From Amoebophrya sp. A120 (taxonomy: Eukaryota; Protista; Dinoflagellata): a stretch of 38,836 nt of DNA. The position numbers and the translations under genes are program-made. A model generated the notes under the pieces. It made no database searches and was not told the DNA's origin. It saw only the letters and a program-made list of their open reading frames with translations. The stretch lies in contig CAJINV010000006.1 in assembly GCA_905178155.1 (NCBI GenBank), forward strand, positions 276,461 through 315,296, read 5' to 3'. How positions within the stretch are numbered: the first letter of the stretch is position 1; every line of letters begins with the position of its first letter. Positions 730-38,836 of the stretch are shown here, in pieces.

Positions 730-3700
730 TGTTCACCACAAAGCCGAACCAGTACTCCCCTACGCTCAAATCGAAGAACCCGTTGCGACAGTGGTCCTGC
801 ACGCGCCTCCCCAGAACGTATTCCGCCCGCTCCGAAAATGCGGCAAGCAAGACGCAAGAGTCGCGGAGCTCGCCATTTCTGGTGTGTTCGAGGGAGGTAG
901 AAGATGAATCAAAGTTGAGGCTCATCTCATCTCCGGCCTATCCTGAGCAAAAGTATCTGATACTCGTGGTAATCGCAGTCATGCAACGTCTTTCCTAAAG
1001 GTAAATCCGCAACATTAGAAATTTCATTTTTTATCATGCTGAGGGATGAATTTGTCATGCGATTTCTACTAGTACGATACTGTTGCAAGACCATGCATAC
1101 GACCACCGCGTGCTGTGCCGGGTTGATGCCGTTCAAAGCGTGCGTGCAAAACGCCAGATGGTGTTTCAGTGTCACCAAAATATCGTACGAAAAAAGTGTT
1201 TCACTGTAAGGATTTTGCAATTTTTGCATCACAAGTTGGTTCTGCATGACAGAGAAAATTCGCCATGCGAGATTTCCAAGGGAAAACACCACTAAAATTC
1301 CATTGTCTTGCATGTGTAGCAAGACAAACGGTTCTGAGATAGATTTTCTGCATTACAAGTTTACAGTGAAACAGTTTTTTCTTGCGATACAAAAACCGGT
1401 GGGTGTAGTCGTGCAGGTCCCACAACAGCTGCTCCAGTTGATTCTATGCATCGCAAAATTCGTAGGTAAATTGCAATCATGCATTACAGATCTGGGTATT
1501 TATCTGATTCACCATTACAAATTCACGAAATTTGTCGTGCTGGGGATGAAATTTGTGATGCGATTTAACTACTAGTACGATTTATAAGTACTTTTGCAAT
1601 GCATAGATTCTTTGCGGCGACAAAAGTGGGTGGCAGCGACACGCCTTGACGGAAAAGGTTCCTGCGTTCATCGTCGGCAGGTAGCTCTATTATCTTCATG
1701 TCCTCACAAACTCGGTCCGGTACTTGCAATATCCTTGGTACCCGGTTGCTCTCCTTGGGTACCGAGGGAACTAGCGGGACCTGGAACAGCCCCACTTCAG
1801 ACTCCGTTTCCTCGTTCGTGCAGTTGTAGTACTGTTTTTTATGTTGATGTTCGTTGTCGTTCTTCTCCTCTGCAGAAGCAGCTCCAGTACTATGGCCTTC
1901 CTGAGAAAGATGATGATCATCATTATGATTTTTATCCCCAGCTGCAGGAGAGGTAACGTCAACGTGAGAAGTTGATGTCTCCTTATGCCGTTGCTGCGTC
2001 GCAAATTCGGTTTCAGAGGCAAGCCGCGCCTCCTGGTAGTCGGAGTCGGACACTTTTAGTTGTTGTGTACTGCCTTCAGCAGGACCTGCCGGCGTTGTAC
2101 CAGCATCTTCGATGTTGTCGCGAAAAATCGCTGCGTGAAGAACGTCGGCCGAAGAAGCAACATGCCCCCACCGCCCCTGTAGCTCTTCGATGCCAACGTT
2201 CATGGTGCCCGCTATCCTGAGTAAACACGTCCCCACACCAGAGTCAGGATGGGGATTTTGCAACACAAGCCTAGGAGTTTTGTGAGTCACGCATGACAAG
2301 TTGCACTTCGCAGCGTAGTGCAGGTTAGCGAGTGCAGCCGCGTCACAGACTTATCTGCTCATCCTGTTCACAGCATCACAAATTCCAGAACACGATTGGA
2401 AATGGCTCTCATGGGGATGCGCATTACAAGTCTTCCTGTCTTTGCAAATCTGCATTACAACTCTGGTGTGGGGACGTTTTTACTCAGGATACCCGGGCCG
2501 AAAAATTCATTAAAGTAGTAATCCAGCGGGATGTATCCTGTGCAAAAGTGTCGCGCTCGTATTAATTGCAGTCACGCATTACAAATTTTTTTTCTTAAGA
2601 TTAATCCGCATTACAATTTTTTTTTCTGCTCATGCTGAGGAAATTTGTAATGCATTAATACTGTTACACGATGAGTACGATACTTGTGCAAGTCATAGTA
2701 TGTAATCCTTCCGCACCCGTGGTTCCTCGTCTATGACGGGCGGGAAAACGCGGCAGATGGACGTTTTGCGTATTGTTTTATGCCTTGCAAAAGCATCGCA
2801 CTAGGATAAATTGCATTACAAATTAGCCCAGCGTTACAAATTAAATTTGTAATCCTGATTCACCTTGAGAAAGAGATTTGTGATGCATAAAACGCAATCT
2901 TCACTACGAGTACGATGCTTTTGCAATGCATATGTTTCCGCCTGGGACCACTGATTCTTCAACAGGGTAGTTGCCTCGTCCTCTTGCAGAAGGAAGTGGT
3001 TGTAATGCCGCTGTTGCTCCTGATAAGGTGGAGCGGGCGTCTTCGTATCTTCAGCAGTAGAACTGGAACTAGAAGCACCTCCTCCGCTAGGGGGTTCTAC
3101 TTTTGTAGTCGTTGCAGCATCTACTTTATGATCATCTTGATGTTGATGCCCTAGCGCGGCTGCAGTAGATCCGTTTATATCTTTCTCGCTGGACGTAGAC
3201 GCCCGGAGAACTTTGTCGAACAAAAACTTTTTCTTCTTCGGGAACCTGTCGGGACGAGGAGGAAGCCTGTCTTCAGCTTCGCTAATCCACTCGCCCCATG
3301 CGTGCGAATTATCTACTTGCGCTGCACTCGACAGCACACGACGAGTAGTTCTTGGTGGTCGCACATGTGCTGGAATCTTCATTGGTGTCGCTCTCGAGCG
3401 TCCGCCCGCGCTACTGTGCGGCGCTCCTCCTTCTCGGTCGTTATTCTTCGAAGACAGAAAGCTGGACACCAAAACGTTTACCTTGTGCGGAAGAACGTGC
3501 TTGTAGCGCAGATTCATGTACAGGGCGGTGGAGAAGGCAACACGGTCGGAAGAGGGCTCCTCTCGAAGATGATCCACAACAATTTCGGGGAAGGAGGAGG
3601 TAGAGGACGCCTTGGTCGTACTACTACCTGGTGCAAAATTGTCGTCCTCGTCTTCATCTGTGCCGCACACTGTAAACTTTGCGATCCTCGGCGATAGGCG

Positions 3701-6700
3701 GAGGAACCGTTTCGCGTCAAGCAGTTCTTCCGGCCTGGGAGGAACAACGCTGGTTGATGTTAGGAACTCCGCTCCGCCCTGCTTCTCCTTCCGCTTTGTT
3801 GTAGTACGTAGATCGGATAGGTGTACAGTAGGCTGGAGGTGGTCCTCTTGCGCATCTGTTACTCGTCCCACAGCAAGGTGTTCTTCTTGACCAGTAGAGT
3901 TTGTTACAGTAGAAGAAAAATGTTCAAAATACCAAACCGCATCCCAAAGCGTCGCAAAGTCTTCTGACAGGTCGAGATAGTATGAATGTGTTTGCGGGGG
4001 TGGGTGCTTGTGGTCCCGCTGCTGCCATTCGTGTCCGATCCGCTTCCGCGTGTTCCAGCCGACCGGATCTAGTACTTCCGCATGATCAAAAGTCGATCCA
4101 CTGGTTTTCTTCTTGTTCCTCGAAAGCAGCAGCTCAGCTAAGTTCCGGCTACCCCAGATGACCGGAATACAGTTGGCTTCCAGCAAACAGGAGAAAGTTT
4201 TGGGATGGATAAAATCGTATCCAGTGCAAAAGTATCGCATCCGTATTGAGAATTAATCGCAGTCACGCATTACAAATCTCACTCTCAAGGTAAATCGGCA
4301 TTACAAATTTTCTTTCTCAAGCTGAGGAGATTTGTCATGCGATTTATACCAGTACGATACTTTTGCAATGCATAAATCGCGCGTGCCAATGTGTTCATCC
4401 GTTAAAACGAAGCTGAAGCGACAAGAAGATGGCTCTTCTTGTGCAGCATCTGCATTGATGTGGTCTGCATGGCGCCCAAGACGTTGAACTACACTGGAGG
4501 AATTTTTTTCATCACTCTCTCCACCACCGTCTGCTTCTTCTACTGTTCTTGGCGGCACAACAACAGAACAGTCACTGTCTGGAGGAGCGAAGTCCTCGTC
4601 GTGGTGCGTATTTATTCCCAGCGACCGTTGGGATGCTGATACGGTGGTGTCGGTATGTTGTTCACCATCTGTAGGTCCTTCTACCAGGTTTTCCTGGAGG
4701 TAGTTTGGGTCCGGGCCACGACTCTGGCCTCTGTCTACTTGTTTCATCTGACCCGCTACAACTTGTAGGATGGCCTGCTTCATCCTCTCCGCCTGAGCCC
4801 CCTCTACCACGTCAAAATCGAGGCTGCAGTAGCGACGGGGAAGCGAAGCGGAAGTAGTTCTTGGCAGCTGCTCTACTCCTGCTTCAGTGAACGAGATAGT
4901 GGACCACGTCGACGCGTGCTGTTTGCTAGGCGTGTAGTCACCATCCTCGCCTACGAGGGTCGTCGTCGTCGTGTCCTGCTCGGAAGAATGTACTAGACCG
5001 GTCGTCGAAGTTGTACTAGAAGAAGAAGAAGAAACAGGCCCCTGGCCTTGCGGAATAGAGCCAGATCCCGACGAAATTGTTAAAACCGAAGATGAGTTGT
5101 CATTATTTCTCAATTCTTGAATCGCCTGCACAGTGTCCGCATTACACATTTTTTTCCCCGTATGAAAGTGCACAAAATAACCCTCCAGCAGCCCCTGGTG
5201 CGACCGTTGTGGTGGTCATGCGAGTTGGGTTCTTGCGCAGCTGTCGCTATTGGATCATTAATATTCTTGCCCTCTAATGCTGTCAGCAGCCCACGTGCGC
5301 TGCATCACGATCTACGTATACTGTGGCGGCCACAACGACCCTACACAGTTGTACTAAAACCAGTTTGGTCTTCCTAGACCGACGTCTAATTATATTCTTT
5401 CTGCACCACAGATGAAGCCAAATTTTTATGTTGAGATCTCCAGGGTAACAAGGCGATAGTGCGCATCATCAATCCCATAGGCAGTCTGACACAACAACCA
5501 GTGACTGTATGCCGACATTGCGTCTTCCTCAGAGGCGTTGCGCCTATGACGTTGCACAACCCGCCTCCCTCTAATATGAGTATCTCGCTAGTCAGTTTGT
5601 GATGCAATATCATAGCCGCCGCGTGCCACAGTAGTGCAGTTAAACTTTATTTCGCATGAAGATCTACTTCAGAAGTTGCAATTATGCAACTGAAAAAGAT
5701 CATGCAACAGGAGGAGTTTTTGTGCACTCTCATAGCGGCCGCGCGCCACGTCGATTATTTTCCGTTCGCGGCGGAACGGGAGCGGCGTCGGTGGCCGTGC
5801 GTACGCGGAGGCGTCACCCATGCCCGTCCCTACCGGCAAGGTGGATGTAGTTGTACTAGAGGTCGTGTTCTTCGCCTTGGTACCTCCTGTGCCTGCCGTG
5901 GTCGGGGTCGTTGTGTTCAGCACATTCGTTTCGTTGTTCGTGGTCGAGCTATGCATTGCAAAAGTAATATCGCTGTACCAGAACTAGTAGAAATCCTATT
6001 ACAAATTGACTTAGCATTACATTTACAGCCTATTATGCGGATCGATAGCAGAAGCACCAACTCTGTAATTATGCACGTACCACCAGTTGTTCCAGTGAGT
6101 TGACAATACTTTTGCACAGGATACGAGATACGAGGCCGTCCCCGAAATCCCGGAGGCTGGAGAAGAAATTTTTGTGATGTCTTTTTGTCTATACAGGGGT
6201 AGGTTTTATGCATGACAAAAGCGGTACATCATGCGGTCGCTCTATGCATCAGAAATTTGGAAAACAATACAGCACTTATCTACCTTCGGTAACGCATTCA
6301 TCCTTATCTCTCCTGCGAGGGTCGTCGTCGTCGTGTCCTGCACGGAAGAAACAATCTTTTCGTGTTCATGATGATCCGTCACGACGATTGTAGCACTCCT
6401 GTCAACTACATGGTCGACAGCAGCGGAAGGGTTCAATTCCCCATTGCTCTCCACGACCACTTCCTCCTCCTCTTCCAAGTCCTCAAACTCGCCAAGCTCC
6501 AAAATTCCCCGGGTCGTGATGGTCGTTTTCTCGGAGTGCGAGAACTCCGTTTCATGATCGTCGTCCCCGCCGCCGGCGGTGGGATCATGATGATGGTCGG
6601 TAAATGCGCCAGAATCATTTTCATCCCCCTCATTCCCAGCGTTAGCGTCCTCTGATAAAATCGCATGCTGAGAAATGTGTTCTTGCTCCAGTTCAAATGC

Positions 6701-7205
6701 TTCTTGTTCTTTCGACGTTCGCAGAAGGTTCTGCAACTCCTGCTGCTCACGGTCATTGACGGCGCAGAAGTATCAAATGTAAAAATGTCTGGGTCTGGAA
6801 ACTTGTAATGCTAAAAATGAATGATCGACGCACTGCAGTACGCAGCTATGCATGACAAATTTTTTGGCTGCCATGTCTTACGTATTCCGCATGGCAAACT
6901 GCGTTTTTGCATGACAGGTAAGAGGGCTTTTTTGTGCCTGTGCAACACAGATTCTCGAATCATGCCAGACAAGCATGACAAACTTGCATTCTTCCAGACC
7001 CAGACATTTTTACAGTTGATAAGAAGGACGGAAATGCGTCGTCGACAACCACGTGGTCACGCGGATGGGCCGATTCTCGTTGCAGCGTGCTCCTGTGATG
7101 AAAATCGCTTTTTAATACTTCCGGTTCCGCAGGGATTATGTGTGACGTGCAGCAGAAGAGGACGAGAGAGCGGAAGAAGGAGAATTTTCTTGCGAAAATG
7201 GCCAT
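730..7205 (-). CDS. Large multi-exon protein with an N-terminal hydrophobic signal/anchor and a degenerate GT10 (alpha-1,3-fucosyltransferase)-like region; interrupted by 10 TIR introns; 3' end unresolved
   Basis: ATG at 7205 (MAIFARKFSFFRSLVLFCC). Removing element plus 5 nt gives in-frame joins: FPSF/CAVND, PRIS/TTNN, GTRD/FIHPK, QAET/IRKT, KDYI/PLDYY, FGPG/TMNV, AKN/QLEQ, HRFL/VTLK, HAVV/GDEMS. The reconstructed RFSFVLTDEHIGTRDFIHPKTFSCLLEANCIPVIWGSRN...YYLDLSEDFATLWDAVWYF resembles the GT10 KFxLxFEN..DYxTEK..AL.AG.VPV.G motif. The junction near 6190-6290 is not resolved. Confidence 0.75.
939..1099. mobile_element. TIR intron element, family D (161 nt)
   Basis: TATCCTGAGCAAAAG...TGCATA; flanks CGGCC/CGACC (4/5); removal with one DR keeps the frame. 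Confidence 0.85.
1181..1389. mobile_element. TIR intron element, family B (209 nt)
   Basis: TATCGTACGAAAAAAGTGTTTCACTGTAA...TTACAGTGAAACAGTTTTTTCTTGCGATA; DR CAAAA. Confidence 0.9.
1445..1605. mobile_element. TIR intron element, family D (161 nt)
   Basis: TATGCATCGCAAAA...TTTTGCAATGCATA; DR GATTC. Confidence 0.9.
2213..2491. mobile_element. TIR intron element, family F (279 nt)
   Basis: Near-perfect 32-nt TIR TATCCTGAGTAAACACGTCCCCACACCAGAGT / ACTCTGGTGTGGGGACGTTTTTACTCAGGATA; flanks CCCGC/CCCGG. Confidence 0.92.
2534..2697. mobile_element. TIR intron element, family D (164 nt)
   Basis: TATCCTGTGCAAAAG...CTTGTGCAAGTCATA; flanks GGATG/GTATG; frame restored. Confidence 0.85.
2779..2932. mobile_element. 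TIR intron element, family D, reverse orientation (154 nt)
   Basis: TATGCCTTGCAAAAGCATCG...CGATGCTTTTGCAATGCATA; DR TGTTT. Confidence 0.9.
4218..4374. mobile_element. TIR intron element, family D (157 nt)
   Basis: TATCCAGTGCAAAAGTATCG...CGATACTTTTGCAATGCATA; DR AATCG. Confidence 0.92.
5161..5734. mobile_element. Long TIR intron element with family E ends (574 nt), DR not recognisable
   Basis: TATGAAAGTGCACAAAA...TTTTGTGCACTCTCATA. Flanks CCCCG/GCGGC are not a DR, but removing element plus 5 nt still rejoins the frame (ARGR/KKMCNAD). Confidence 0.75.
5950..6123. mobile_element. TIR intron element, family D-like, reverse orientation (174 nt)
   Basis: TATGCATTGCAAAAGTA...TACTTTTGCACAGGATA; flanks CGAGC/CGAGA. 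Confidence 0.85.
6771..7021. mobile_element. TIR intron element, family A (251 nt)
   Basis: 30-nt TIR TATCAAATGTAAAAATGTCTGGGTCTGGAA / TTCCAGACCCAGACATTTTTACAGTTGATA; DR AGAAG. Confidence 0.95.
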
Positions 7206-7527
7206 GAGGTCTTGGGGTTGACGCCCTCGAGCTGGGCGACGTAATATACGTGCTGGTGGTCCGCGCTTGTTTATATGTAATGTGGAGGCTGCAGCTCTCA
7301 CTCTCTGTTCTTTGTGATAGCAACGCTGGCGCTGACGTCTGTGCGTGGCACTGTAAGCAGGTAGTTCCAGCGAGATGCAGTCCTACTGAGAAGTGGCGGT
7401 GCTTCCGAAATGATGGCGCTCATACACGAAGAGCAAGTGGAGAGCGAAGCAGGGGCTAAACAATATCAGATGCTTCGTCTCGCAGCCTAGGACCGACCCC
7501 GAGAACACGAAGGCACACGGCGTCAGA

Positions 7528-9440
7528 TTGCGCGTGGCCCCACAACCGCCAGGCGTCTGTCACGTTATCACAAGAGCTTCGCTTTTAATACAGAGGCACG
7601 GTGGCACTTCTTCCCCCGTTCGAAGGGAAGACGATCGAGCACCGGCCAACATGGCTGATGCCGGCGGGAGCAGTGCAGCACGCGGGCAACGAAAACCGTG
7701 CCGGCCATGCAACGGGCAGGAAAATGCCCGCGCGCACTATTCGCGCGACCGGGACACACGAAGGCCCCGGACCTGCGCGCCGGCCACTGAGAGAGACAAA
7801 CACCGGGCCGGCCAACCCTTCACGCCCGGGAAACAATCCCAGCCAGCAAGGCCCGTCCTCGCTCCCATCGCTTGCTTCGCAAGAAAAAAGGCGGCCCAGG
7901 CCAGCTCGCGCGGGCTGCCGCAGGGGGGCCGCGCGCCGGCCCCAAGAGGTGGCGCGCGCCGGCATCAAAAAAACACGGAAGCCCGCCTGCCAAACGGCAG
8001 ACCGGTGGCCACTGTGGCGGCGGCGTTGGTGTCCTTGCTGGCGGTCTTGCTCGCCCTGATGACGCGACGGCCTCGCTCCGTGTCGAAGCAACAACCCCAC
8101 CGCTCTTTTACAACAGGGCACCGCCAGCGCCTGGCCCCCTCTCCGTCCTTCGCCGGGCCGGCCAGCTCGCAGCAGGCGAACTGCCGCAGCCCTCCACAGG
8201 CTCGGCCGCCGAGGCAGCTGCAGGGCTTCCCAAACTGCCGGCGGAGCTGTAGCCGCCTCGCCCCGGCAAATTCGCCGCCATGTTGCTAGTGCGTGACTTC
8301 ACTGATGGAACTGCGCCAGAAGCTTGCGACAGCGATCGCTTAATGCCTTTGCTGACCTGAACTAGTGCGCGCACGTTCGGCGTGGGGACTTTGGAAGCGA
8401 CCGCGACGCCCATCGTTATAGAAGTCTGCTTTGGCTTGAGGTTTAAGCCGAGGCGCCGGGCCCCCGGCGGGCGCGCTTCTTGACCGCTCTGGCGGGCGCG
8501 GCGCTTGCCCTTTTGTCTGCCGGGAATGGGGCGGCCTGCGGCAGCACGAAGCCCGTCGGGTTCTGGAGCTTGCGCAACCAGACGCGCTGCCTTGTCGTTA
8601 GTTCGCGCAGACAAGGCGCCCGCGCCAGGAATTCTGGCCGGGGCCCGGCGACACCAAGACGCGCCCGGACTGCAGAGCGCCGCCCCCCTCTCCCCATCGC
8701 AACAGAAGAGCGCGGGCTGCCCGAAAACTCCCCGACCTGTAGCAGCCAGCCGCATTGCTCGCCCACCCACACGCCACACAAACAAAAACCAACAGCCACG
8801 GCCGCCCACTCGCCCCCCCAACGCGGCGCCGCGCCTTTTCCTCCGCTTCCTCCGCTTTCTTCCGCCCCTGCCGCGCCGCCGCCGGGGACCACGACGGGCG
8901 CGGCGCTGTACAAAGCCGGCAGGCCGATAAGTAAACCGGCGCGGCGCGCTCGCAAAGCCTTCCCACCTTCTGCGCCGCTCGCTCGCGGGGCACCTGCGGC
9001 GGGCCGGCTTGCTGGAAGGAAGTCCCTGCCCCGCGGTGAACTGCAACAGCAAGGCCTCCGCGTGAACTGCAACTGCAAAGGCGCAGCCCGCCAGGAATTT
9101 GCGCACGCGCGGGCCTGCGCGCTTGCTGCCACACGCCTGCACGTCGCGCGCCCCCAATAGCCTGAAGGCGCCGCCGCGCGCTTTTGTGGTTGCACACCCC
9201 GGCGAAGCCTAGCGGCCCTGTGGATGCACGTGCGCCGCCTCGGCCAACCCTTCCACAGCACCACAGGGACCAGCTTCAGTCAAAGGCGTGAAGGAGCTCC
9301 GCGCCTACGTATTGAAGCTGCAAAGCAGCACGGGATGCCGCTCGGCGCGGATTTTTTCAAAAAACAATAAAACGCACGCAGGCCGACCGCGCGAGGGTAG
9401 GCGTGCAGAAGCTGCGCCAGTGTCTCGCGTGCAGGTTAGT
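7528..9440. other. GC-rich island of unknown nature
   Basis: Visibly much richer in GC and CpG than its flanks. It has overlapping low-complexity ORFs on both strands and no recognisable domain. Confidence 0.5.
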
Positions 9441-9560
9441 TCTGCGACCATGTTCACCGCGGGGAGTTTTCTCTGCACGACGAGAATATTTTATGTGTGG
9501 CGAAGTTTTCTCTGTGCGGGTTGGACTTTTCTCTGTCGGTTGATTTTTTATTTTTTTTTT

Positions 9561-10830
9561 CTAGACCCTATCGCTATTCTGCAAAAAAAAGATAAACAAA
9601 AATGGCGCTAGTTGCATTTCCATCTTCGTGCTCCATCTCCTTAGAAAAGTTTGGTCATCTACGGGTGTGCGTTGCACAAGATAGAACAATTTGCGTGGCG
9701 TAATTCGAAAGTGCGTCGCTTTTCTTGCATTTCCATCTTTCTCCGTTGCCATATAGAAGAGCTTGGGTCTATCGCTCCCCTTGGACTGTATTTGGGTGTA
9801 AACAGGTCCAGGGTCCAAGTAATGCTATAGCCGGATACCACAGTGTGTCAAACTGCGATAGAGTTGTTCGCTTCTACGTCCAATCATGCATTTACTCATC
9901 TCCTTAAACCCCATGCTCCGAGGATGTACTTGTTTGCATGAGTCGGGATCTGTAGTATCAGAGTATGACTCACATCCTGATCCGTTATAAAGAGATCTAT
10001 CCTTCTCCCTCAGTCACGGATCAGCTTTTCGCTCCGGATCAAGACTTCTTCTGGCCGTAGCACGGTGCTGCCGGACGAAAACGAGAACGAAAGAAGCTTC
10101 ACTGACTTGGGTTACTTCCACTTCCGACAATGCACGGATGCAGGGCTCAACACAAAGGGAAAACATTTCTCGAATTTCCAATCGAAGTCGAACCTGGAAC
10201 AACGCACCTGTTCGGCCAGCGATTTTTCTTTTCTTCGATGTAAGTACTTCGTTTGGTTTTGCCGCCATGGCGACCCGTGCTCTTGTATGTCCGTTTTTCT
10301 TGATATCATACAAACCTTGTTTGACCTATTGGTCGTCTACGTTAGCATTTCCTTTCAGATCCAGAAACACAGATGCTAGTTGGTGTACCAAACTTAAACT
10401 CAGTGGCGAGACACTTTTTTTTCACGACGTTATTGTTAGTTTACTCGGCCCTGGCCGCGACGTGCTGTAGTACTTACTCATCATGCTTGCATCTTTCTCC
10501 AATCCATACTCTTACTCAACTTTTACTTTTCCAAAAAGATAAAAACTTATGACTTCATCACCACGTGGCTCATCCCGTCCAACTATGGCAACGCAATCTT
10601 ACAAAACGTCTATATGTGGAAAGTTGTTCTTGATCATACAGGTAGTTTCGAAAACTTCCAAAACTCGATGTTCGCAAATTCGCACTTGATGCGGTTGTTA
10701 GTGGGTGTCTAAAACTCGCGTCGCAATGCAATACTGGTGCTACCCCAAAAAGATATAAGGTTCTTGCGGTCTCTAAATAGACTTCTGGTCCCAGATCTTG
10801 CTGCACAGCATCACAAAGGCTGGCGCAGAA
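9561..10830 (-). CDS. Probable exons of a hypothetical minus-strand gene, possibly the 3' part of the 11312-13954 gene
   Basis: Three protein-like minus ORFs (10570-10806, 10014-10313, 9561-9818) separated by AT-richer spacers. Splice junctions not resolved. Confidence 0.3.
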
Positions 10831-11311
10831 CTGGTTCCGGTTTTTTTCTTGCTTCGTAAACTCACTTAAATGTACTTAGTATGACTGTTTTAGTAATCTA
10901 GGACTTGCTGTTTTACATTTCATCACCAAAGCCTTCTGCTAGTATACTCGTGACGGCTCTCCCAAGGTACGTGTTCTGTTGCAGCTGGCATTCTACTTCC
11001 TCCAACGAAGAAGTTGTAAAAAAAGTCTCAGTCTGTATCTGTGGGAATAGTGGGCGAATCAAAAACTAAATCATACTACGGGAAAACTACGACTGACCAG
11101 TGCTTCACCCGAATACACTATGTCCCAACCTAAGGACCTACTGTCTACTGAGTATAAACCACTCGGTCTTACGCATCTGAGTCACAATTTCCGTCGTCCA
11201 CAGTGTGCTTTCAATTTCGACGTCGCCAGTTTGTCGCTCGCACACGATAACGACTGGCAAATATTACTTTGATTCTGAACTTCCTTGGAGTCACGACGTA
11301 GTCCAACTCGA

Positions 11312-27500: not shown

Positions 27501-30008
27501 GATAGAAAAGATTTCGTAGTTCTTCCGAAGAAAGGAGTGCAGATTGGGTATCGGAGGGGAAAGGAGGTTCTTTGGTTGTTGAGCCAGTTCTTGTTCCAAT
27601 TGAGACAACATTTTCTCATGCTCATCATGTGGTTGTACATGCAAAAATTATGGCAATCGCGATGACAAATTACATGCGCTTGCGGCTGGTCCTGCACGAC
27701 TCCTCCGAGTCAATAAATATGCACAAGGTGCTTCTTGCCGCGCGCATCTTCATGCGTGCCATCTTCTTAATCGCGGTTTAGAATCAGAGAAACCATCTCT
27801 TTCAAACAAACCAACACAATCATTATTCCACCCCATACCACAGTCCGCGAATTCCAGCAAAATGTGGATCACCAAGTCTTTTGGAAAAAATTTCGCTTCG
27901 CCGATCATCTTCACTACCCGCAGCTCGTCCACCGCGTTGTGTCTACCATTCTGGGTACTAGTTCCGGCCTTCGCTGCCCGATTTTTGTCCCGCAAAGCCC
28001 GCAGCCAGTTTACCTCCATGGCGAACGAGCGCATTTGCCTCGCGTCCCGAGCGTAGACGACTTTGAGTGCGTAGCGGCTAACGGATAACGGAGAACCTTG
28101 CTCCTTGTTTCGACTTGCACTGCTGCTTGTTCCATTGGGCTGACCACTTCGCGACGCGCCGTCATGGTTGGAGCTATAGTTGCCCCCACGACTGCCCGAT
28201 CCCGAGGTCGTAGTAGTCGATCCTTCATCTCCCACACAAGTTCGCAGGTCAACGCACTCGAACACCTCCGCCGACCCGCCCTTCCCGATCCGCTTCACAA
28301 CTTCGAGCAATAAAGTCGGTTTGTTGAAGTCCACGTGATGGCTGTCAACCACCTGTTCGCCCATGCAGATGACCATGCCGGGGCCAACGCGGGCAGTGGC
28401 GGTCACAGCGATGTTTTTCCGCTGGATAAACGCAGCCGGGGAGAGTAACGAATCATTTTCCTGGTACGAAGTCCGGCAGTCCTCGTCGTTGAAATACTCT
28501 GGTAGGTCGCTCGGGGAATTGAGAAAAGGGGCGTTGTGGCGCCCGTAGACGGGGATGCTGCAGCCCGCGGAGGGGGGATGTAGATGGTCTTTTTGAGGGG
28601 AAAAACCATTCGCCACTTCTGCGTTCGCAGGACACATCCCTTCCACATCGGGGAGACCACTAGCATGATCCCGGGGAACAAGATCGGTGTCCTTCTGGAC
28701 GTCTTTGCCATCAGGCACAGGAGAAGGATCGACCTTTTCCGCGCAGCGTGGTAATATTATCGGCGTAGAATCCTCCGGGACGACTGGCGCGTTGTTGCGG
28801 CTGTCGGCCTTGATGTCGTGGCTGCACCCTCCAGAGCTGGTAGTGTCACGAGGATTTCTGATATGAAAGCCGCGACGTCCATTTCCATATTTCGCCGCTT
28901 CAGCTACAGGCTGAGCCTCCTCTTGATTCTGGTGAAGACGCGCTGACTCGTCCACATTTCGTTGTAGCTCGGTCCTCTTACCGTTGGATGTACCAACCAC
29001 AGGAGCCACCTTTGGCAAATCCGCCTGGTAGACGAAGTCTTGCAGTCCTTGAGGCTGCTGGTCGTTCTGGCCAGCATTTTGGTGTCGCTCCTGCGGTGCG
29101 GCGAGCTGTGTGTCACCGTTTTCGCAGTCGGCATTGCTTTCGAAACTGGTTTCTCTGTTTTCCAGCCGCCCTGTGTCTGTGCGGGAGTTCTTGTGCTTGT
29201 TGTCGCGATAGGCATCAGTGAGGCCCGCATGGTCCTCAACATCATGTCTGACCCTGGGAGCAGCCACGGAATAAGAGCTCTCGGAGGTGGGCTCTCTGTT
29301 CGGATTGTAGGACGAATATTGGTCAAGGTCATCTCGTGTCGCCGCAGGCCGGACTTCCACTTGGCCGCGGCCAGGGCGCCACGCAGGAGGAGTTCCACCA
29401 CCTACATCGCTTCTTAATATCACATCATCCTCAATCGTACTCGTCGCTGCCGGTCTCCTGGCGTCGTTTTGGTCTTGGTAATACGAGCTTCCATAATTAC
29501 CGGTGGGCAAAGTGGTGTTCACTATGCCGTCGTACGACGTCGCGTTATTTCGTTCATGGGCGCGAGGGTCACGTGGGCCGCCAACCACATCCCGTGCAGC
29601 TTGTTGCCACTCATACGCTGCCTCTTCTCGAACACCTTCTCCCGGTGCATGTTGTCCCACGTCGGCTCCAGCATTTGCGGCCTGTGCATGACAAACTTTC
29701 GGCTCGAAATCGAGTGTGGTCGCAGTATGCAACGCCGACGTTGCTTGCGTGGGAACTGGGGCGACGGGTAAAGGGTAGCTGGGTACGTCATGCTCTTCTT
29801 GGACAAAGCGCGCACGGTTATTTTCGAAGCGTCTATTCGTGTTACCCGGCACTGCTAAGTCGCGGCCGGCGTTAGAAGTAGCTCCACATGGAGGCTGTAT
29901 GCAACCGTGCGGATCTGGATGGTGAGGGTTCAAATTTTTACATTGGTCAGACGGAATCGCGGGTCGTGCGGGATTGTCGTTGAAATGGTGGCTGCGCCGG
30001 TCGCTCAT
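21563..30008 (-). CDS. Mps1/TTK-like protein kinase, continuous in frame with a transmembrane helix, a Pro/Ala/Ser-rich stalk and a Cys/Trp-rich C-terminal domain (about 2200 aa if a single gene)
   Basis: Kinase motifs after removing the elements: IGKGGSAEV, YALK, LEFADC/NLHSFLRK, IHFDLKPANFL, VKVSDFGLA, QCGTPRYMPPEA, DVWALGIILYQLLYGRAPY. Approximate exons: 30008-27840, 27545-27443, 27175-27104, 26845-26432, 26217-26070, 25741-22831, 22646-22223, 21960-21563. The kinase call is strong; the fusion is less certain. Confidence 0.8.
25747..26069. mobile_element. TIR intron element, family C (323 nt)
   Basis: TATTGTGAGGAAAAATCCCCCCTCCCCATAT...ATATGGGGAGGGGGGATTTTTCCTTGCGATA; DR CATTT; join TTK/WKGRR. 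Confidence 0.93.
26223..26431. mobile_element. TIR intron element, family B, reverse orientation (209 nt)
   Basis: TATGCAAGAAAAAAACTGTGTAAGTGTAACTT...AAGTTACACTTACACATTTTTTTCCTTGGATA; DR CTGGT. Confidence 0.93.
26851..27103. mobile_element. TIR intron element, family A (253 nt), inserted in the kinase DFG motif
   Basis: Family A TIRs; DR AGTCA; join TCT GAC T/TC GGC = SDFG. Confidence 0.95.
27181..27442. mobile_element. TIR intron element, family A (262 nt)
   Basis: Family A TIRs; DR GACTG; join AIHS/LGLIHFDLKPAN. Confidence 0.95.
27549..27837. mobile_element. Decayed TIR-type intron in the kinase hinge region
   Basis: Imperfect inverted ends TATCGGAGGGGAA / TTCCACCCCATA and no DR. Removing the core plus 5 nt (294 nt) gives EFADC/NLHSFLRK. 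Confidence 0.55.
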
Positions 30009-31185: not shown

Positions 31186-32732
31186 CCTTGAGGCAAATGC
31201 CCAACAACTGCGGAGGGGTAAGTAGCGGAGGGTGTAGACGGCACATGCAGAATCGCAGTGCCGTCCTGGTAGCAGAAGTGTAATAATAGATGGCGTCTGC
31301 TTTCAAAAAGTAAGCACTTTGCACTTTTAGCACTATCCGCAGCTAATTCTGGGTCTAATCGACTGCAACTTGCCCTCCGCCCCCCCTCCGCTAGGCGAGT
31401 GTCAAGACGTGACGCCATCCTGGAAAGCGTTTTATGCGTTGTTGATTTTGTTTCTCGGTTTTTTTGTCGGTTTCGTAAAATTTGAAAACTCAGCATGCTA
31501 TGAGGCACATGCCCCGCAACTGCGGAGGGGTCGCGGAGGGTGTAGACGGCACATGCAGAATCGCAGTGCCGTCCTGGTAACAGGAGTTTAACAATAAATG
31601 CCATCTGTTGTCAAAAAATAAGCACTTTACACTTTTCATACTATCCGCAGCTACCTCTGGGTCTAATCGACTGCAACATGCCCTCCGCCACCCCTCCGCT
31701 AGGCGAAGGTCAAGAGCTGATACCATGCTGAAAAGCTTTTTATTCGTTTTTACTTTTGTTTTTCGCTTTTCTTGCCGGTTTTGCAAGTTTTCAAAATTCA
31801 GCATGCTATGAGGAACATGCCCAGCAACTGCGGAGGGGTAGCGGAGGGTGTAGACGGCACATGCAGAATCGCAGTGCCGTCCTGGTAAGAGAAGTTCAAT
31901 AATAAATGCCATCCGTTGTCAAAAAGTAAGCACTTTACACTTTTCATACTATCCGCAGCTAATTCTGGGTCTAATCGACTGCAACTTGCCCTCCGCCACC
32001 CCTCCGCTAGGCGAGTGTCAAGAGGTGTCACCATGCTGAAAAACTTTTTATGCGTTTTCACTTTTGTTTTTCGCTTTTTTTGCCGGTTTTGCAAGTTTTC
32101 AAAATTCAGCATGCTATGAGGAACATGCCCAGCAACTGCGGACGGGTAGCGGAGGGTGTAGACGGCACATGCAGAATCGCAGTGCCGTCCTGGTAAGAGA
32201 AGTTCAATAATAAATGCCATCTGTTGTCAAAAAATAAGCACTTTACACTTTTCATACTATCCGCAGCTAATTCTGGGTCTAATCGACTGCAACTTGCCCT
32301 CCGCCACCCCTCCGCTCGGCGAGTGGCAAGAGGTGTTACCATGCTGAAAAGCTTTTTATGCGTTTCCACTTTTGTTTTTCGTTTTTTTGTCGGTTTTGCA
32401 TGTTTTCAAAATTCAGCATGCTATGAGGAACATGCCCAGCAACTGCGGAGGGGTAGCGGAGGGTGTAGACGGCACATGCAGAAGCGCAGTGCCGTCCTGG
32501 TAGCAGAAGTGTAATAATAAATGGCATCTGCTTTCAAAAAGTAAGCACTTTGCACTTTTAGTACTATCCGCAGCTAATTCTGGGTATAATCGACTGCAAC
32601 TTGCCCTCCGCCACCCCTCCGCTAGCCAAGTGTCAAGACATGACACCATGCTGAAAAGCTTTTTCTGCGTTTTTGCTTTTGTTTCTCGTTTTTTTTTGTC
32701 GGTTTCGCAAACTTTTAAACTTCAGCATGCTA
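31186..32732. repeat. 308-bp tandem repeat array, 5 copies, each with nested inverted repeats
   Basis: TCAGCATGCTA recurs at 31490, 31798, 32106, 32413 and 32722 (spacing 308, 308, 307, 309). Confidence 0.95.
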
Positions 32733-32788
32733 TACGTATCCTATACGGATTCAAAATCATATACAATCCATTTCCGACACGCATATAC

Positions 32789-32815
32789 GTGAGTCTGGTG
32801 ATTCACCAGACTCAC
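32789..32815. repeat. Perfect palindrome with 13-bp arms
   Basis: GTGAGTCTGGTGA-T-TCACCAGACTCAC. Confidence 0.85.
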
Positions 32816-34936
32816 TGACATTGACCTTGATGTAGTTCGTTGATCTCATCGCAAGTGCAGGTTATCGGAGCAGCAGGTAGTATTTTGAGAATAGGACTGT
32901 GCAGCACATCATGTCCATCTTCCTCCTGCATGCTGCAACGTCGTCGATTTCAAGGGAGGTTCTTTGACCTATTCATACATGGAGTGCAGGAACGATCATG
33001 ATCATGTTGATCCTGCATCCGTAGCCGGACTAAACCGTGTTGCTTCTTCGAGCGGACGAAGCTGTGGTGGGAAGGAGAAGAAGAACTGCAGCAGAGGCGC
33101 GTTTATGTCACAGTTCACAATGGATCATTATCACCTGCTCTTCGGACAAGCACAACTACTCCAAGCGCATTTTGATTGAACCGTCGAGAAGTAGTTGTTT
33201 TGGCATCCTCCTCAACAAGAAGCAGCCGATTCGCAGGTCTCGTTGTCTTCGCCCGTTGCGCCCATGAATTTTTCGCCAAACTCGACCTCCTGTATCAGCA
33301 TCGCCGACAACAGCGCCATTTTCTCATTTTTGTGAGAAGCTAGAAAAACTAACTCGTGGTCCGACAAGGTAGAGGACTTGCACTTCTACTCTACTCTAGG
33401 CCTAACTGCTAAGCGTCAACCACAAATTCAGCAACGCTGCGCTTGTTCCAACACAACATGTTCCAACAGAGAAAGAACTTGTTCTACATGCAATCATCAA
33501 ACACAAACAAGGACAAGGAGAAGAACGGCACAACCCGCGGGCGACGCAAGGAACAGAGCGAGATTTTAGCTTTCGCATCGCAATCATTTTTGTGCACTGG
33601 TCGTTAGAAGCAGAGCAGCCGGCTGCAATTGTAGCCACGCTAGACGACCTAGCCTGCATAGCCGCTGTCACTGTAGGCTAGGTATAGCCTAGCTGCAACG
33701 GCGGCTGGCTGCTGTCACTCAGCACTGCAGACGAGACAGCTGCGGATTCTCACAGTAACTGTCTGCTCGTCTGCATGGTTTTATAATTTTTTTTGTCATC
33801 ATAAGCTTTTGGTACAAGGGATAGAAATTCATTTTCAACTGCTGCTTCCGTGTTTCTTTTTCATCCTCGATCGTTCGAGTTTCTTGCCACAACGCAATTG
33901 ATCGACATAATTGTTCCTTCTGTCGTGATACGGTGGCTACTGACTTGGTGACTTTCAAGTCAAATAAAACTCTCATCGACCACCTACCTGTAGTGCTGGA
34001 TCATGATCGGGGATCGGAATTTGTGATGCTGATTTCGAATATCATAAATAGTTTGTAATGCTATATTTCGAATAGTAATTGACTAGTTTTGAGATGGACA
34101 AAAACCACAAATCTTCGTAGTTCGCGTTTCGTGTTTGTCAGCTTGTAATGCTAGTTCTGCCATGCTACGCACCTCCTCGCGACCTGGGCCACAACCATTG
34201 TTGCGTACCACAGTCGTGGCATGACATGCTTTTTCGTTTTTTAATAGAGTTAATACGTTCCTACTTTTCAATATCCTGTCCACATAACGGCACAGAAATA
34301 TTTTGGTTACACAGGTGAAACAGTTTTCAAAAGATCTTCCCACGATGAAAGGTTTTGTGAGACAGGATTTGATCGCTGTGGAATAAAAGGTTTCAATTTA
34401 CTGTGGATCGTCTATGAATTGTTGGTAAAAATAATCGGAATTTCGTCCTTATTGACTTCTGACAAACATCGACACTTCTTCTATACTAGCTGGTCGTGAA
34501 TGCACCAGATTTCCTACAGATACCATAGACTCAGAGTCGTCGTGAGACTTCCTCGACTTCCGGACCCGTGCTCTCCCGAAGTAGACTTACTCGAAAAGGA
34601 GAGAGGTTTCATGACCAAAGTGCATCTATTGAATGAGTTTGGACTATTAAATACGTGCTGGTAGGCCGCTTTATGATGACAGTCATCTTACGTTAAAAAT
34701 AGAAAAACAAAACAAGTACAGAACTGGCTGAGAAGAAGTTTGTTCACGGAAATAAAGTAAAGTCACTCATGGTAGGAGGTATTCGGCTAGAATTTCAAAT
34801 ATTTGTATTTCAGCAAAATACATAGTAGAAGGGAGAAACCTATTGTACAATTTAGGAGGAAGAACAGAAGAACAAAAGAAGACCACTACTTCATTTTTCC
34901 GCAACTACTACAGTGGTTAAGGAAAGAAACCCTACT

Positions 34937-37748
34937 TTACTTCACCTCCTTCAAAAAGCGGAAGTAGAGTTTCTTAGCCAGCAGCCGGTGCTTCTTTGAC
35001 TTCGCGTACCAGGCTATCCAAGAAAAAAACTGTGTAAGTGTAACTTTCTTTGGCAGACAGCATCACAAATTTGCTCTACATGACAGAGAAAACCTCTCAT
35101 GCGCGGCTTGTACGGGAAAACACACATGAAAAAAGAAGTTCGTGGCTGTGTGGCATGACAGGCGTAACTCTGTTGCATATTCTGCATTACAGAGTTACAC
35201 TTACACAGTAGTTTTTTTCTTGCATACAGGCGGCGTCGTGTCCGTGGTGGCACTTCTGCTCCGGGTCCGCTCCGTAGTGCAGGATTAAGAAGTATCAAGT
35301 GCAAAAATGTCTCGGTCTGGAAGAGTGTAGACTTGTCATGCAGATTTTCCATGACCCATGAGTTCAGGAATGCGGGACTTAGCATGACAGACTCTGCGAG
35401 GTCTCTGCCATGCCTATTCTGCATGAGAAAGTCCGTTCCAACTTGGTCAAAAGTGGACAGCTTTTGGCATTCATGCAACACAGATTTTTGCATGCTTCAG
35501 ATTTGTCATGACAAGTTACAATCTTCCAGACCCAGATATTTTTGCAATTCATAAGAAATGGCACAGGTCTTCCTTCCCCGTTTTCGCAGCGTAGTGCAAA
35601 ACGGTCTGTCCGTTGTTGGGCCACTTGTTGTCCAGTGCTTTCCAGCCCTGGTTGTTGAGCATCTTGAAGCACTTCTTGTACTCCGCCGGCACCAATTCCT
35701 CGGCTTATCCTGTGCAAAAGTCTATCGCATTCGGAGTAATTGCATTTATGCATTACAAATCTCTTTCTCAAGGTAAATCCGCATTACAAATTGAATTTCT
35801 AATGCTGGGCTAATTTGTGATGCAATCGATACTAGTACGATGCTTTTGCATTACATATGGCTTCGTACGGAGACATGATGTCACTCGCCTTGATCACTTT
35901 CTCCTGTATGAGAGTGCACGATTCCCCCCTCATCTTTCGTATTTTTGCATGAACAGCAATACAAACACGACCACAGACACACGTGGAGCTCCCTGTGCAT
36001 GACAAATTCATGCGCCTAGTGTAGATAGTACTGCTTGGGCAGCTTCCGGAATCTGTGATGCATAAACAGTGCCACAGGGAAGCACTTGGATTTGGGATTT
36101 TGCATGAGAAATGAGAACGAGGGGGAGTTGTGCAGTTTCATATCCTGGCCGGCCACGTTGGAAGGCATACCGGATTTCTCGTCCAGCAGGTCATTGCTGT
36201 TCGCGCCGTCATCCAGCTTGCTCTGGGCCTGCGCCTTCTTAGCCGCTTCCAGTTTCTTGCGCAACTATTGTGAGGAAAATTCCCCCCTCCCCATATTGGA
36301 AAGGACATTTGTGATGTCGGATTTGCGTACACAAATCGACTTGTTATGCTAGAAGGCCAAGCGACGCAATTGTGGCCGGAATTGCAAGCAGTTTGTCATG
36401 CTGTTTGCCACTTCCAGTTGCCTCCTGTCACGCTGAAGATGCAAGGCCTTCCCACGCCGGCCAGCACTACAGTCCGCATCTTTTGCCCTCTAGCGTGACA
36501 ACGTAAATTGTGGTAGCAAATCATGCTACACAAATCTCCGTTTTAGTATGGGGAGGAGGGATTTTTCCTTTTGATAGCAACTCCGGATTCTTCTGCAGCT
36601 GGTACTTCCACTCCTTCTATGAGAGTGCACAACTCCCCCTCCCCCTCATTTGTCATGGAAAATACCAACTCCAAGCGCTGCTGCGTGGTACTGTTTGCAT
36701 GACAGATTCCGGAAGCCCAAACAGTACTGCACTGAGCGCATGAACTTGTCATGAACAGGCTCCACAGGTGGGGGTGTCTGTATTGCTGTTCATGCGATAC
36801 AAATGAGGGGGAGGGGGGGGTTGTGCACTGTCATACCTTCGCGAAAACCTGTTCGTTCGCCGGATTCGAAAAATCGATGTCCTCCGCCGGAAAACTGACC
36901 ATCAGGGCCGAGAACTCTTCGAAGAGCGAGTTTTTCTTCTTCGGGTTCGCCAAATCAATGGCCTTCTTGCCGAAATCGTCGATCACGTGCACCTGCTGCT
37001 TGATAATCGTTTCGTCCAGGTTGAGCACTAGGTAGTCGAAGAGAGGCTTGTTATTCTTTTTCGCCGCGTAGTGGAAGAAGGTGCCATATGGATTGCAAAT
37101 ATGTCTGGGTCTGGAAGAGTGGAACTCGTAATGCTGCCTGCGGATTCTAAAAATGTCTGTGTTGCATGAGCAGCCAGAGGAGTCAGCTCTTGGCACGCAG
37201 AGAGGGCATTTCTCATGCGTAATTAGCATCAAGAAGCTCTCAAAAAATCTGTGATGCTAGCATCAGCATCACAGACCTCATGGGTCATGCAAAATGTGCA
37301 TGACAAGCCCCAACTCTTGCAGACCCAGACGTTTTTGCAGTTGATATGCCACCGCCAGTCTTGTGGGCCAACTGCTGCTGGCAATTTTCGTTGTCGAACC
37401 CGAGCTCTTTGCACATCCGGAACATCTTCCCGTAAAAGTCGCACAGACCAAAGTCGTGTTCCTCGTCGTAGATCTTCGTGCCGTCCGATCGGCCCGATTT
37501 GTTGGACGCCATGGACTATGCAATGCAAAAGCATCGTACTCGTCATATAAATGCATTTAGAAATTAGCCCAGTACTACAAATTGAATTTGTAATGCTGAT
37601 TGACCTTGAGAAAGAGATTTGTAATGCCTAAATGCAAGTACTACGAGTACGATACTTTTGCACAGGATATGGACTCCTTGCTCATCATAGACTGCCGCAG
37701 CTGGTCCTTGTTCGGCACCAATTGGATCATGATCTGCCCGTTGCTGAA
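34937..37748 (-). CDS. Ankyrin-repeat protein, 9 exons split by 8 TIR introns; 5' end uncertain
   Basis: Removing each element plus one DR gives 969 nt of continuous frame ending at TAA 34937. It contains GGTFFHYAAKKNNKPLFDYLV...DDFGKKAIDLA and GQTVLHYAAKTGKEDLCHFLILHYGADPEQKCHHGHDAAWYA. Confidence 0.88.
35015..35226. mobile_element. TIR intron element, family B (212 nt)
   Basis: TATCCAAGAAAAAAACTGTGTAAGTGTAACT...AGTTACACTTACACAGTAGTTTTTTTCTTGCATA; DR CAGGC. Confidence 0.93.
35293..35553. mobile_element. TIR intron element, family A (261 nt)
   Basis: Family A TIRs; flanks AGAAG/AGAAA; join LCHF/LILHYGAD. Confidence 0.92.
35706..35857. mobile_element. TIR intron element, family D (152 nt)
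   Basis: TATCCTGTGCAAAAG...CTTTTGCATTACATA; flanks CGGCT/TGGCT. Confidence 0.9.
35907..36142. mobile_element. TIR intron element, family E (236 nt)
   Basis: TATGAGAGTGCACGATTCCCCCTC...GAGGGGGAGTTGTGCAGTTTCATA; DR TCCTG. Confidence 0.92.
36266..36576. mobile_element. TIR intron element, family C (311 nt)
   Basis: TATTGTGAGGAAAATTCCCCCCTCCCCATA...TATGGGGAGGAGGGATTTTTCCTTTTGATA; DR GCAAC. Confidence 0.92.
36618..36835. mobile_element. TIR intron element, family E (218 nt)
   Basis: TATGAGAGTGCACAACTCCCCCTCCCCCTCATTTGT...ACAAATGAGGGGGAGGGGGGGGTTGTGCACTGTCATA; DR CCTTC. Confidence 0.93.
37087..37346. mobile_element. TIR intron element, family A (260 nt)
   Basis: Family A TIR variants; DR TGCCA; join TGGG/TFFHYAAK. 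Confidence 0.92.
37517..37669. mobile_element. TIR intron element, family D, reverse orientation (153 nt)
   Basis: TATGCAATGCAAAAGCATCGTACTCGT...ACGAGTACGATACTTTTGCACAGGATA; DR TGGAC. Confidence 0.93.
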
Positions 37749-38012
37749 TATGCATTGCAAACATGTCTGGGTCCTCTGGAAGGATGCAACTTGTCATGCT
37801 AAATCCGAATCGTGCAAGAATCTGTGTTGCATGAGTGCCAAAAGCTGCGCACTTTTGACCAAAGTGAGAGGGAGTTTATCATGCAGGACAGACATGATAG
37901 AGATCTCACAAGATCTGTCATGCTAGGTCCTGCATTCCAACCCTCGTGCGTCATGGAAAACCTGCATGACAAACTTGCACGCTTCCAGACCCAGACATTT
38001 TTGCATTTGATA
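37749..38012. mobile_element. Family A element with unrelated flanks, possibly a hybrid (264 nt)
   Basis: Both TIRs are present, but the flanks CTGAA/TTCTT are not a DR. Confidence 0.85.
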
Positions 38013-38836
38013 TTCTTCCGGCCTGGGAGGAACGAGGCTGGTTATTTTGTAGGGAGGTTCTTGGTATCAAATGTAAAAATGTCTGGGTCTGGAAGATTGC
38101 AACTTGTCATGCTGAATCTGCAGCATGGAACAATCTGCGTTGCATGATTGCCAAAAGTCGTCCAGTTTTGACCAAGTCGGGAGAGAGTTTCTCATGCAGG
38201 ATAGGCATTAGAAAGGTCTCGCAGAATCTGTCATGCTAGCTCCGGCATTCCAGACCTCATGGGTCATGGAAAAGCAGCATGACAAATCGCGCAACATTCT
38301 TCCAGACCCAGACATTTTTACACTTGATACTTGGACGAGAAACTCCGTTCCGCCCTGCTTCTCCGTCCGCTTTGTTGTAGTACGTAGATCGGATAGTTGT
38401 ACACTAGGCTGGAGGTGGTCCTCTTGCGCATCTTTTACTTCTCCCAGAGCACGATGTTCTTCGTGCATGAGCAGCAAAGAGAGTCCAAGTTTTGCTACAC
38501 GGAAAGAGCATTTGTCATGCGGTATAGGCATCAGGAAGCCCTCGCAAAATCTGTGATGCTAGGGCATGCATCACAGACATCAGGAGTCATGCAAAATGTG
38601 CATGACAAACGTGGCAATCTTCCAGACCCAGACATTTTTACATTTGATATTCCATTTCGTGACCGTCGAACCAACGTAGGGACGGAGAAAGAAGTAGTGC
38701 GAAACGTCGGTGGTTGAGGCCGCGGCGGGAGGAATTTCTGTTGCTGAACTCTTATCAGCGGGAGTAGCGACGTCTGCATCGCTGTCGTGCCGCCGGGAAG
38801 TAGTAGGAGATTCATCTGCAACAGATGCAGAAGCCC
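38013..38836 (-). CDS. Exon fragments paralogous to part of the 7205-730 gene; possibly rearranged or a pseudogene; runs off the right edge
   Basis: EEHRALGEVKDAQEDHLQPSVQLSDLRTTTKRTEKQGGTEFLVQ/EPPYKITSLVPPRPEE matches EEHLAVGRVTDAQEDHLQPTVHLSDLRTTTKRKEKQGGAEFLTSTSVVPPRPEE at about 3725-3890, and the match is visible at DNA level. Confidence 0.65.
38065..38329. mobile_element. TIR intron element, family A (265 nt)
   Basis: Family A TIRs; DR CTTGG. Confidence 0.95.
38464..38649. mobile_element. Family A element missing its left TIR
   Basis: The right TIR TTCCAGACCCAGACATTTTTACATTTGATA and the family A body are present. The left ~80 nt are absent and exon sequence abuts the body directly. Confidence 0.8.

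Follow-up and report, generated by a model that had tools for sequence, protein, structure and literature searches.

A stretch of 38,836 nucleotides from Amoebophrya sp. A120 (contig CAJINV010000006.1, positions 276,461 to 315,296; referred to as the window) contains short inserted elements whose families all carry one internal motif, GCAWNACA, spaced according to the helical repeat of DNA. The motif is probably a double-stranded DNA site for a transposition factor shared by all families, with excision resting on the outer ends of the elements. Every long frame in the window lies on the minus strand and is broken by elements of 150 to 320 bp with TAT...ATA terminal inverted repeats (TIRs), which agree in their terminal signature with the published introners of A120. 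The elements are short and non-coding, and have TIRs and a target site duplication (TSD) of fixed length, as do miniature inverted-repeat transposable elements (MITEs); family lengths range from 109 to 323 bp.

One motif in all element families

Related DNA was fetched with the end of family A, giving at least 157 stretches, of which 148 loci were used (787,602 bases, 615,857 non-redundant). These loci were all selected on one family, and counts over several loci refer to the matches listed. In the window and loci together 463 elements were called, compared with 12 in shuffled DNA. Those of 100 to 420 bp number 451, with 412 in 13 families of at least four members and 39 occurring as singles or pairs.

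GCAWNACA matches the window 90 times, compared with 13.2 ± 3.5 (largest 21) in 100 dinucleotide shuffles. Eighty of these matches are inside 25 TAT...ATA elements (5,855 bp, 13.7/kb) and ten are in the remaining 32,981 bp (0.30/kb), four of the ten belonging to a relic at 33990-34260. Over window and related loci, element interior carries 1,597 motifs in 79,924 bp (20/kb; 65 ± 8 when shuffled). At least one motif is present in 439 of the 451 elements and in all 13 families, confirming the observation of the initial annotation, which had seen the motif in typical elements of six families. The examples given there are also exact: 2213-2491 contains GCAACACA, GCATGACA and GCATCACA once each and GCATTACA twice, and 6771-7021 contains GCATGACA three times. 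GCATGACA is the most enriched 8-mer of element interiors, and the fuller consensus is GCAWBACARR. The motif is indeed rare in exons, as had been judged by eye, with three matches in the 14,587 bp of long open reading frames (ORFs) of the window. After masking of elements the background density was 0.66/kb (0.34/kb in long ORFs and 0.73/kb elsewhere, canonical introns being counted within this background rather than annotated separately); composition predicts 0.21 to 0.26/kb, and decayed elements make up much of the background.

The TIRs share more than the TAT...ATA to which the initial annotation had largely limited their likeness. TAT is present at all 26 consensus ends, and bases 11 to 13 are AAA in nine of the 13 families (TAT-N7-AAA), TCA in three and CAC in one. 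Most TIRs contain a short tandem repeat with a period of 5 to 6 or 15, and positions 9-45 follow one of two designs: an A-run with a doubled 5- to 6-mer (10 families) or a doubled 15-mer (F6, F7 and F10). Within an element, covariation between the two ends is seen at 9-30 in most families; positions 4-8 pair poorly and covary little. A 5-bp duplication without target preference is common to all 13 families; it was exact in 318 of 407 elements and had at most one mismatch in 374, while an exact 6-bp duplication was found in none of the 407.

Spacing of the motif and clustering of elements

Same-strand motifs are 31 to 33 bp apart in 12 of the 13 family consensuses. There are 20 such pairs, compared with 2.0 expected and a maximum of 9 in 20,000 placements, and the spacers within them differ from family to family. 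When all same-strand distances are pooled a 10.5-bp period appears (R = 0.49, n = 69, the distances not being independent). The array is also in phase with the end of the element: the first inward TGTNWTGC starts 33-34, 42-45 or 53-56 bp from the end, positions one helical turn apart (33, 33, 34, 34, 34, 42, 43, 43, 43, 43, 44, 44, 44, 45, 53, 54 and 56 for 17 ends; R = 0.87 at 10.5 bp). With one value per family this gives P = 3e-4 (3e-3 allowing any period from 6 to 16), and the phase recurs in unclustered elements (20 ends, R = 0.65, P = 2e-4). Of 20 spacing changes common to subfamilies, 14 are of ±1 and two of about one turn (-9 in F0, -11 in F4), the remainder being three of +3 and one of -4; rare changes instead peak at +3 and +6. 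The motif spacing thus follows the DNA helical repeat, which fits binding to DNA and fits binding to RNA badly.

Adjacent elements are 35 to 95 bp apart in 100 of 319 cases, compared with 22.5 expected (maximum 37 in 500 placements, a null that ignores broad clumping), and the two members of a close pair belong to the same family in 12 of 107. Neighbour gaps in the window include 55, 42, 81, 77, 66, 49, 41, 79 and 52 bp, and a weak periodicity of 11 bp runs through the gaps in general (R = 0.26, P = 8e-4, with nine periods tested). An origin of close neighbours as composite units was rejected: in 81 of 100 pairs both members have a TSD of their own, and no sequence is common to the spacers. 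The clustering is compatible with tethering by a bound factor or with insertion into linkers, a bias reported for algal introners in the available passages of PMC9860276. Such linker insertion, together with new insertions near existing elements of any family and the phase of about 10.5 bp, would also agree with an array that positions nucleosomes or a general chromatin protein, so that the phase would reflect DNA wrapping and not a transposition or splicing complex. This explanation is improbable, given that a near-invariant motif of 8 to 10 bp is more specific than a bendability signal, that family lengths vary from one to another and that any further peak at the distance of one more nucleosome is weak.

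Foreign inserts nested within elements were seen at L024:632-1465, L026:10314-10770 and L072:5794-6297. Two of them have TTGACCTGTGG and an (ATC)n run in common and possibly represent a small retroposon.

Strand of the motif

The six motif copies of the F3 consensus are all on one strand. Exact motifs are antisense only in 11 of the 18 coding F3 insertions and sense only in the other seven; two of the antisense-only insertions have one weak sense site by matrix. Since the motif of F3 is one-stranded and both orientations are nevertheless found in coding frames, a single-stranded RNA signal is unlikely. Over all 234 coding insertions, 397 motifs are sense and 443 antisense, and 18 insertions (nine of them F3) lack any copy on the sense strand, whether judged by exact match or by matrix. 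It is therefore very improbable that an RNA-binding protein reads the motif in single-stranded pre-mRNA and so marks the segment for excision, even though copies on both strands in most families mean that most transcripts contain one, and GCAUG resembles the RBFOX site. There is no sense excess, the strand bias of an enhancer is lacking, and we judge this explanation to be largely refuted already. The initial annotation had allowed for a trans-acting factor that binds either DNA or RNA; of these, the DNA option gains support from the helical spacing, while the RNA option is hard to reconcile with the one-stranded motif of F3 and its occurrence in both orientations.

Common descent and conservation

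Masking of the motifs leaves five alignments with z over 3.5 among the 78 pairs of families. The clearest is F4 with F6 (z = 8.1), whose TIRs are unrelated, and some of the others are marginal. F0 and F1 have identical terminal 10-mers, and together with the common interior of F4 and F6 this indicates that the families are mosaics of interiors and ends. On internal branches of the trees of seven families, the motif core changed at 0.31 times and the TIR at 0.26 times the spacer rate, while the free N position changed at 1.05 times that rate. Because the motif is conserved beyond its surroundings, common descent alone is insufficient. The initial annotation had named recent descent of all families from one ancestor, with no extra conservation at the motif, as the finding that would count against a shared factor. 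Its first half is seen in part, F4 and F6 having one interior under different TIRs; the second is not, as the extra conservation is present. A single putative factor for all families is thus supported by inference, from this conservation, the free N and a fixed spacing even though only five pairs of interiors align.

The aligned pairs and the shared 10-mers are also what would be seen if the motif went back to a single ancestral subterminal repeat and were maintained by hairpin pairing or recent descent, with no common binder. Motif pairs with motif in the predicted folds of most families, and 2208-2496 folds at z = -7.5. However, predicted RNA folds of F3, with its copies all on one strand, show 9% motif-motif pairing and the motif is conserved all the same; the bases next to the N position are constrained and N itself is free; and the spacers within pairs of 31 to 33 bp vary between families. 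Inheritance of this kind is accordingly an improbable explanation.

Decay of the motif and probable removal from RNA

For 419 of 517 regions the ends could be defined by a TSD (64 had none and 34 touched edges). Small insertions rise with age: TSD mismatch increases from 0.11 to 0.42 as insertions go from none to four or more, and motifs per element drop from 4.01 to 2.97 over the same range. The outer 13 bp have 14 insertions compared with 55.8 expected, while positions 14-30 of the TIR have 123 compared with 72.9, and AAA persists at bases 11 to 13 in 84 of about 100 old ends. The oldest class had 2.9 insertions per 100 sites in motif, 3.1 in TIR and 2.9 in spacer, counted on alignments with free end gaps, which are not dependable at the termini. 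As the outer 13 bp resist insertions and motifs fall with age, decay affects the interior and spares the extreme ends; the outermost 13 bases likely serve removal from RNA. Duplicated insertions with both flanks in common, which were sought as a test of decay after insertion, were not found.

In non-coding elements the lengths of private insertions have maxima at 3 nt (86) and 6 nt (27), and those of private deletions a minor one at 10 to 11 nt. Indels of 3 nt also distinguish the sequencing runs from the window (32800-38836). Together these observations suggest a genome-wide mutational bias.

Three frames are restored when each element is removed with one copy of the 5-bp duplication. One has 322 residues and spans eight elements (34900-37748). 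Another is a kinase frame, which brings HFDLK and DFG together over intervening elements (Pkinase match on 26409-26849), and the third, about 1,160 residues long, spans the elements between 939 and 6123. Among 245 elements, the frame is open across the junction in 66 to 68% if the element and 2, 5 or 8 bases are removed, in 33 to 38% at other removal lengths and in 2% with the element kept. In RNA run X6 the exons at 34 to 37.7 kb are covered, bins wholly within elements show little or no depth, and 55 reads connect the exons flanking 35293-35553 (joined at 35552). X6 is mostly 95 to 99% alike to the window and so may be a strain lacking these insertions. Contig depth in run X1 is about 10^4 to 10^5 on elements and about 10^2 on unique DNA.

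A host protein on the DNA array might, alternatively, mark the segment for co-transcriptional excision and possibly also aid transposition. Insertions would then be removed in either orientation, at any target and without GT-AG. Indifference to strand agrees with such a mark, as do residual constraint on the motif in terminal branches and against insertions, the near absence of elements without a motif copy, and one motif across differing TIRs, which suggests a host factor. Decayed elements often retain motif clusters (these were chosen on the motif), and U1 snRNA was not detected in Amoebophrya according to the available text of PMC7789003. On the other hand motifs erode with age while ends persist. 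Elements 939-1099, 5161-5734 and 5950-6123, with one exact motif each, still interrupt one long frame (three to five one-mismatch copies remain), and the relic at 33990-34260, with four motifs and no recognisable TIRs, is covered by RNA reads and hence retained in RNA. We consider an excision mark on DNA possible and rather unlikely.

Several observations weigh against the preferred reading of the motif as a site for transposition. Terminal branches are still under-mutated at the motif (0.49 times the spacer rate), insertions inside motifs number 34 where 61.7 are expected (0.55 times), and every motif copy has been lost in one of the 419 elements only, so that the motif may keep a redundant role after insertion. 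The requirement for TAT and a TSD (64 regions had no TSD) may exaggerate how far the outer 13 bp are spared, and intact ends are no commoner in coding than in non-coding flanks (92 of 118 and 10 of 12, a comparison of low power). With regard to geometry, motifs in the opposite orientation show no significant phase with the end (nine ends, R = 0.52, P = 0.09), total element lengths show no helical phasing, and in some families the first motif merely abuts a longer TIR. The families are not independent, gene strands were assigned by a codon model and not by RNA, and six of the seven families folded as RNA are predicted to have 32 to 60% of their motif bases paired with a second motif copy. Finally, no transposase or autonomous element was found in about 650 kb (long elements yielded none, and Pfam gave no transposase domain in 142 ORFs, namely 18 of the window and, after complexity filtering, 124 of the 271 locus ORFs of at least 200 amino acids), and none is reported in A120 by Farhat et al. 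2021 in the available parts of PMC7789003. The half-strength constraint left on the motif may stem from copying events outside the sample, from bias in the alignments or from a redundant part played in excision.

On the preferred reading of the motif as a transposition site, a common protein, either a transposase or a host cofactor, would bind the GCAWBACARR array as double-stranded DNA and assemble the complex that copies the elements. Two binders separated by three turns would face the same side of the helix and be aligned with the cut end. A second module, variable in sequence, may be formed by the TIR repeats at 14-30, which are specific to each family and could be exchanged over a common interior. 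Removal from RNA would depend above all on the terminal stem and the outer 13 bp and need no single motif copy. A more far-reaching proposal is that one protein reads the phased array in all families, licenses movement, steers insertions to 35 to 95 bp from existing elements and marks the DNA for excision in either orientation without U1 or GT-AG. This is speculative and on balance unlikely; if true, an array that defines the intron would be a DNA-level route to orientation-independent splicing and a DNA-encoded system of intron definition.

Both the movement and the splicing of introners in Amoebophrya, which have no fixed splice dinucleotides, are stated to be open questions in the available text of PMC7789003. 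A spaced motif common to all families offers a bait for the responsible protein and a signature for autonomous elements. Unequal decay splits the element into an interior array, a candidate mobility signal, and the outer 13 bp, a candidate excision signal, and the two can be tested separately.

Relationship to known elements

According to the available parts of PMC7789003, introners of A120 have inverted repeats of TAT, seven variable bases and three or more A, and direct repeats of 3 to 5 nt (5 bp in the legend of Fig. S19); they are about 240 nt long, are not bordered by GT-AG and are found in genes that run in one direction. The elements described here are alike in the TAT/N7/A inverted repeat, the direct repeats, the length and the single direction of the genes, and probably also in being removed without GT-AG; no transposase was found for either. 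Only terminal inverted and direct repeats are described as motifs in that text, whereas an internal motif, its spacing and phase and a two-tier decay are described here. The AAA given there for bases 11 to 13 is missing in four of the 13 families, yet the internal motif is present in those four.

The motif is repeated in both orientations inside the ends and is conserved in mobile lineages, as are subterminal repeats, with binding itself predicted. Ac/Ds and CACTA are DNA transposons with subterminal repeats. Lemi1 proteins bind subterminal motifs of the Emigrant MITE cooperatively, and the Emigrant motif is likewise short and present in both orientations within the TIRs of non-autonomous elements (PMC1636448, available passages). 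Such repeats are tied to one type of TIR, whereas here one motif spans unrelated TIRs and fills the element. The elements also differ from subterminal-repeat transposons in the phase of the motif relative to the ends, in probably acting as introns and in their 5-bp TSD.

IS3EU and GingerRoot have TA...TA termini, no target preference and an integrase-like transposase (PMC10045372 and PMC6839031, in part), and a TIR family of A120 with integrase-like ORFs is listed as family 38 in the accessible portion of PMC12130899. The elements here have TA...TA termini too. However, the TSD of IS3EU and GingerRoot is usually 6 bp in those sources and is 5 bp here, and so the elements are not assigned to them despite the likeness of their ends. 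In addition, GingerRoot TIRs of 100 to 150 bp contrast with about 30 to 55 bp here, where no transposase was seen. The initial annotation had suggested a search for long TAT...ATA elements that carry both the motif and an ORF; the candidates proved to be nested insertions or adjacent elements, and orphan ends were truncations.

Non-conventional introns of euglenids and MITE-derived introners of algae are alike in their TIR stems, TSD-like repeats and non-canonical junctions (PMC11282704 and PMC9860276). Unlike the elements here, they have no common internal phased motif in the passages available. In viral contigs there were no matches to the end of family A. The spaced motif pair gave eight matches there, which were set aside as all are coding or simple repeats and none match the family consensuses. 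The elements and subterminal binding motifs were thus already known; earlier descriptions of a family-wide motif, of its spacing and phase or of two-tier decay were not found in the literature searched or among terms in the text and supplement of PMC7789003 (a search that covered text and not figures, and reached neither Roy et al. 2023 nor the majority of subscription papers).

Elements of the window

Positions of motifs are given below with their strand. The elements up to 6123 interrupt the frame of about 1,160 residues. An old F1 element at 939-1099 (TSD cggcc/cgacc) has intact ends and one exact motif left (1053). It is followed by an F2 element at 1181-1389 (TSD caaaa; motifs 1226+, 1244+, 1304-, 1319+ and 1350+, with a 31-bp pair 1319/1350) and an F1 element at 1445-1605 (TSD gattc; 1481+ and 1554-). 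The F3 element at 2213-2491, family F of the initial annotation (TSD cccgc/cccgg), has five motifs, all on the plus strand and antisense to the gene, with 31-bp pairs at 2260/2291 and 2421/2452. Three further F1 elements are at 2534-2697 (TSD ggatg/gtatg; 32-bp pair 2576/2608, and 2646-), 2779-2932 (TSD tgttt; 2813+ and 2879-) and 4218-4374 (TSD aatcg; 31-bp pair 4267/4298, and 4333-). The long decayed element at 5161-5734 has F5-like ends, a degraded TSD and one exact motif (5598), and its removal restores the frame; an old F1-like element at 5950-6123 (TSD cgagc/cgaga; one exact motif at 6014) has many small insertions. The F0 element at 6771-7021, family A of the initial annotation (TSD agaag), has motifs at 6804-, 6850+, 6909+, 6942+ and 6973+ with 33- and 31-bp spacing.

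An F4 element at 25747-26069 (TSD cattt) has pairs at 25791/25824 (33 bp, minus strand) and 25975/26007 (32 bp, plus strand) and a motif at 25923+. In the kinase gene, an F2 element at 26223-26431 (TSD ctggt) is at the end of the kinase domain. An F0 element at 26851-27103 (TSD agtca; 26893/26924/26957 on the minus strand, spaced 31 and 33 bp) adjoins the DFG codons and is oriented oppositely to the F0 element at 6771-7021, and another at 27181-27442 (TSD gactg; 32-bp pair 27223/27255) is directly before the HFDLK codons. The relic at 33990-34260 has its motifs at 34022-, 34054-, 34144- and 34219+.

The frame restored over eight elements is interrupted by an F2 element at 35015-35226 (TSD caggc; 31-bp pair 35153/35184), which has no RNA depth in run X6, and by the F0 element at 35293-35553 (TSD agaag/agaaa), whose flanking exons are joined by X6 reads. 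They are followed by an F1 element at 35706-35857 (TSD cggct/tggct; 31-bp pair 35750/35781), an old F5 element with six small insertions at 35907-36142 (TSD tcctg), an F4 element at 36266-36576 (TSD gcaac), an F5 element at 36618-36835 (TSD ccttc), an F0 element at 37087-37346 (TSD tgcca; 32-bp pair 37266/37298) and an F1 element at 37517-37669 (TSD tggac; 31-bp pair 37589/37620). Next is an F0 element at 37749-38012 with no matching TSD (31-bp pair 37792/37823). X6 reads exit the window at 37748, and 37749-38836 may therefore be rearranged or strain-specific. The last two F0 elements are at 38065-38329 (TSD cttgg) and, with its left end missing, at 38464-38649 (32-bp pair 38568/38600). The stretches 3725-3889 and 38012-38465 are paralogous (91% alike over 128 bp), the copy at 3.7 kb having no counterpart of element 38065-38329.

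Other features of the window

An intron-like gap in the kinase gene at 27600-27840 has degenerate motif-like words and no TAT...ATA ends, and is possibly a very old element. The 18.7 kb at 7022-25746 have no element, two motifs and long ORFs without Pfam matches; within or near this region, 19349-20350 and 22825-25830 have, by eye, a CEDLFLEVL segment in common. Rfam gave no matches, tandem arrays included. These arrays are at 3-534 (97 bp repeated 5.4 times) and at 31189-32733 (308 bp repeated 5.0 times).

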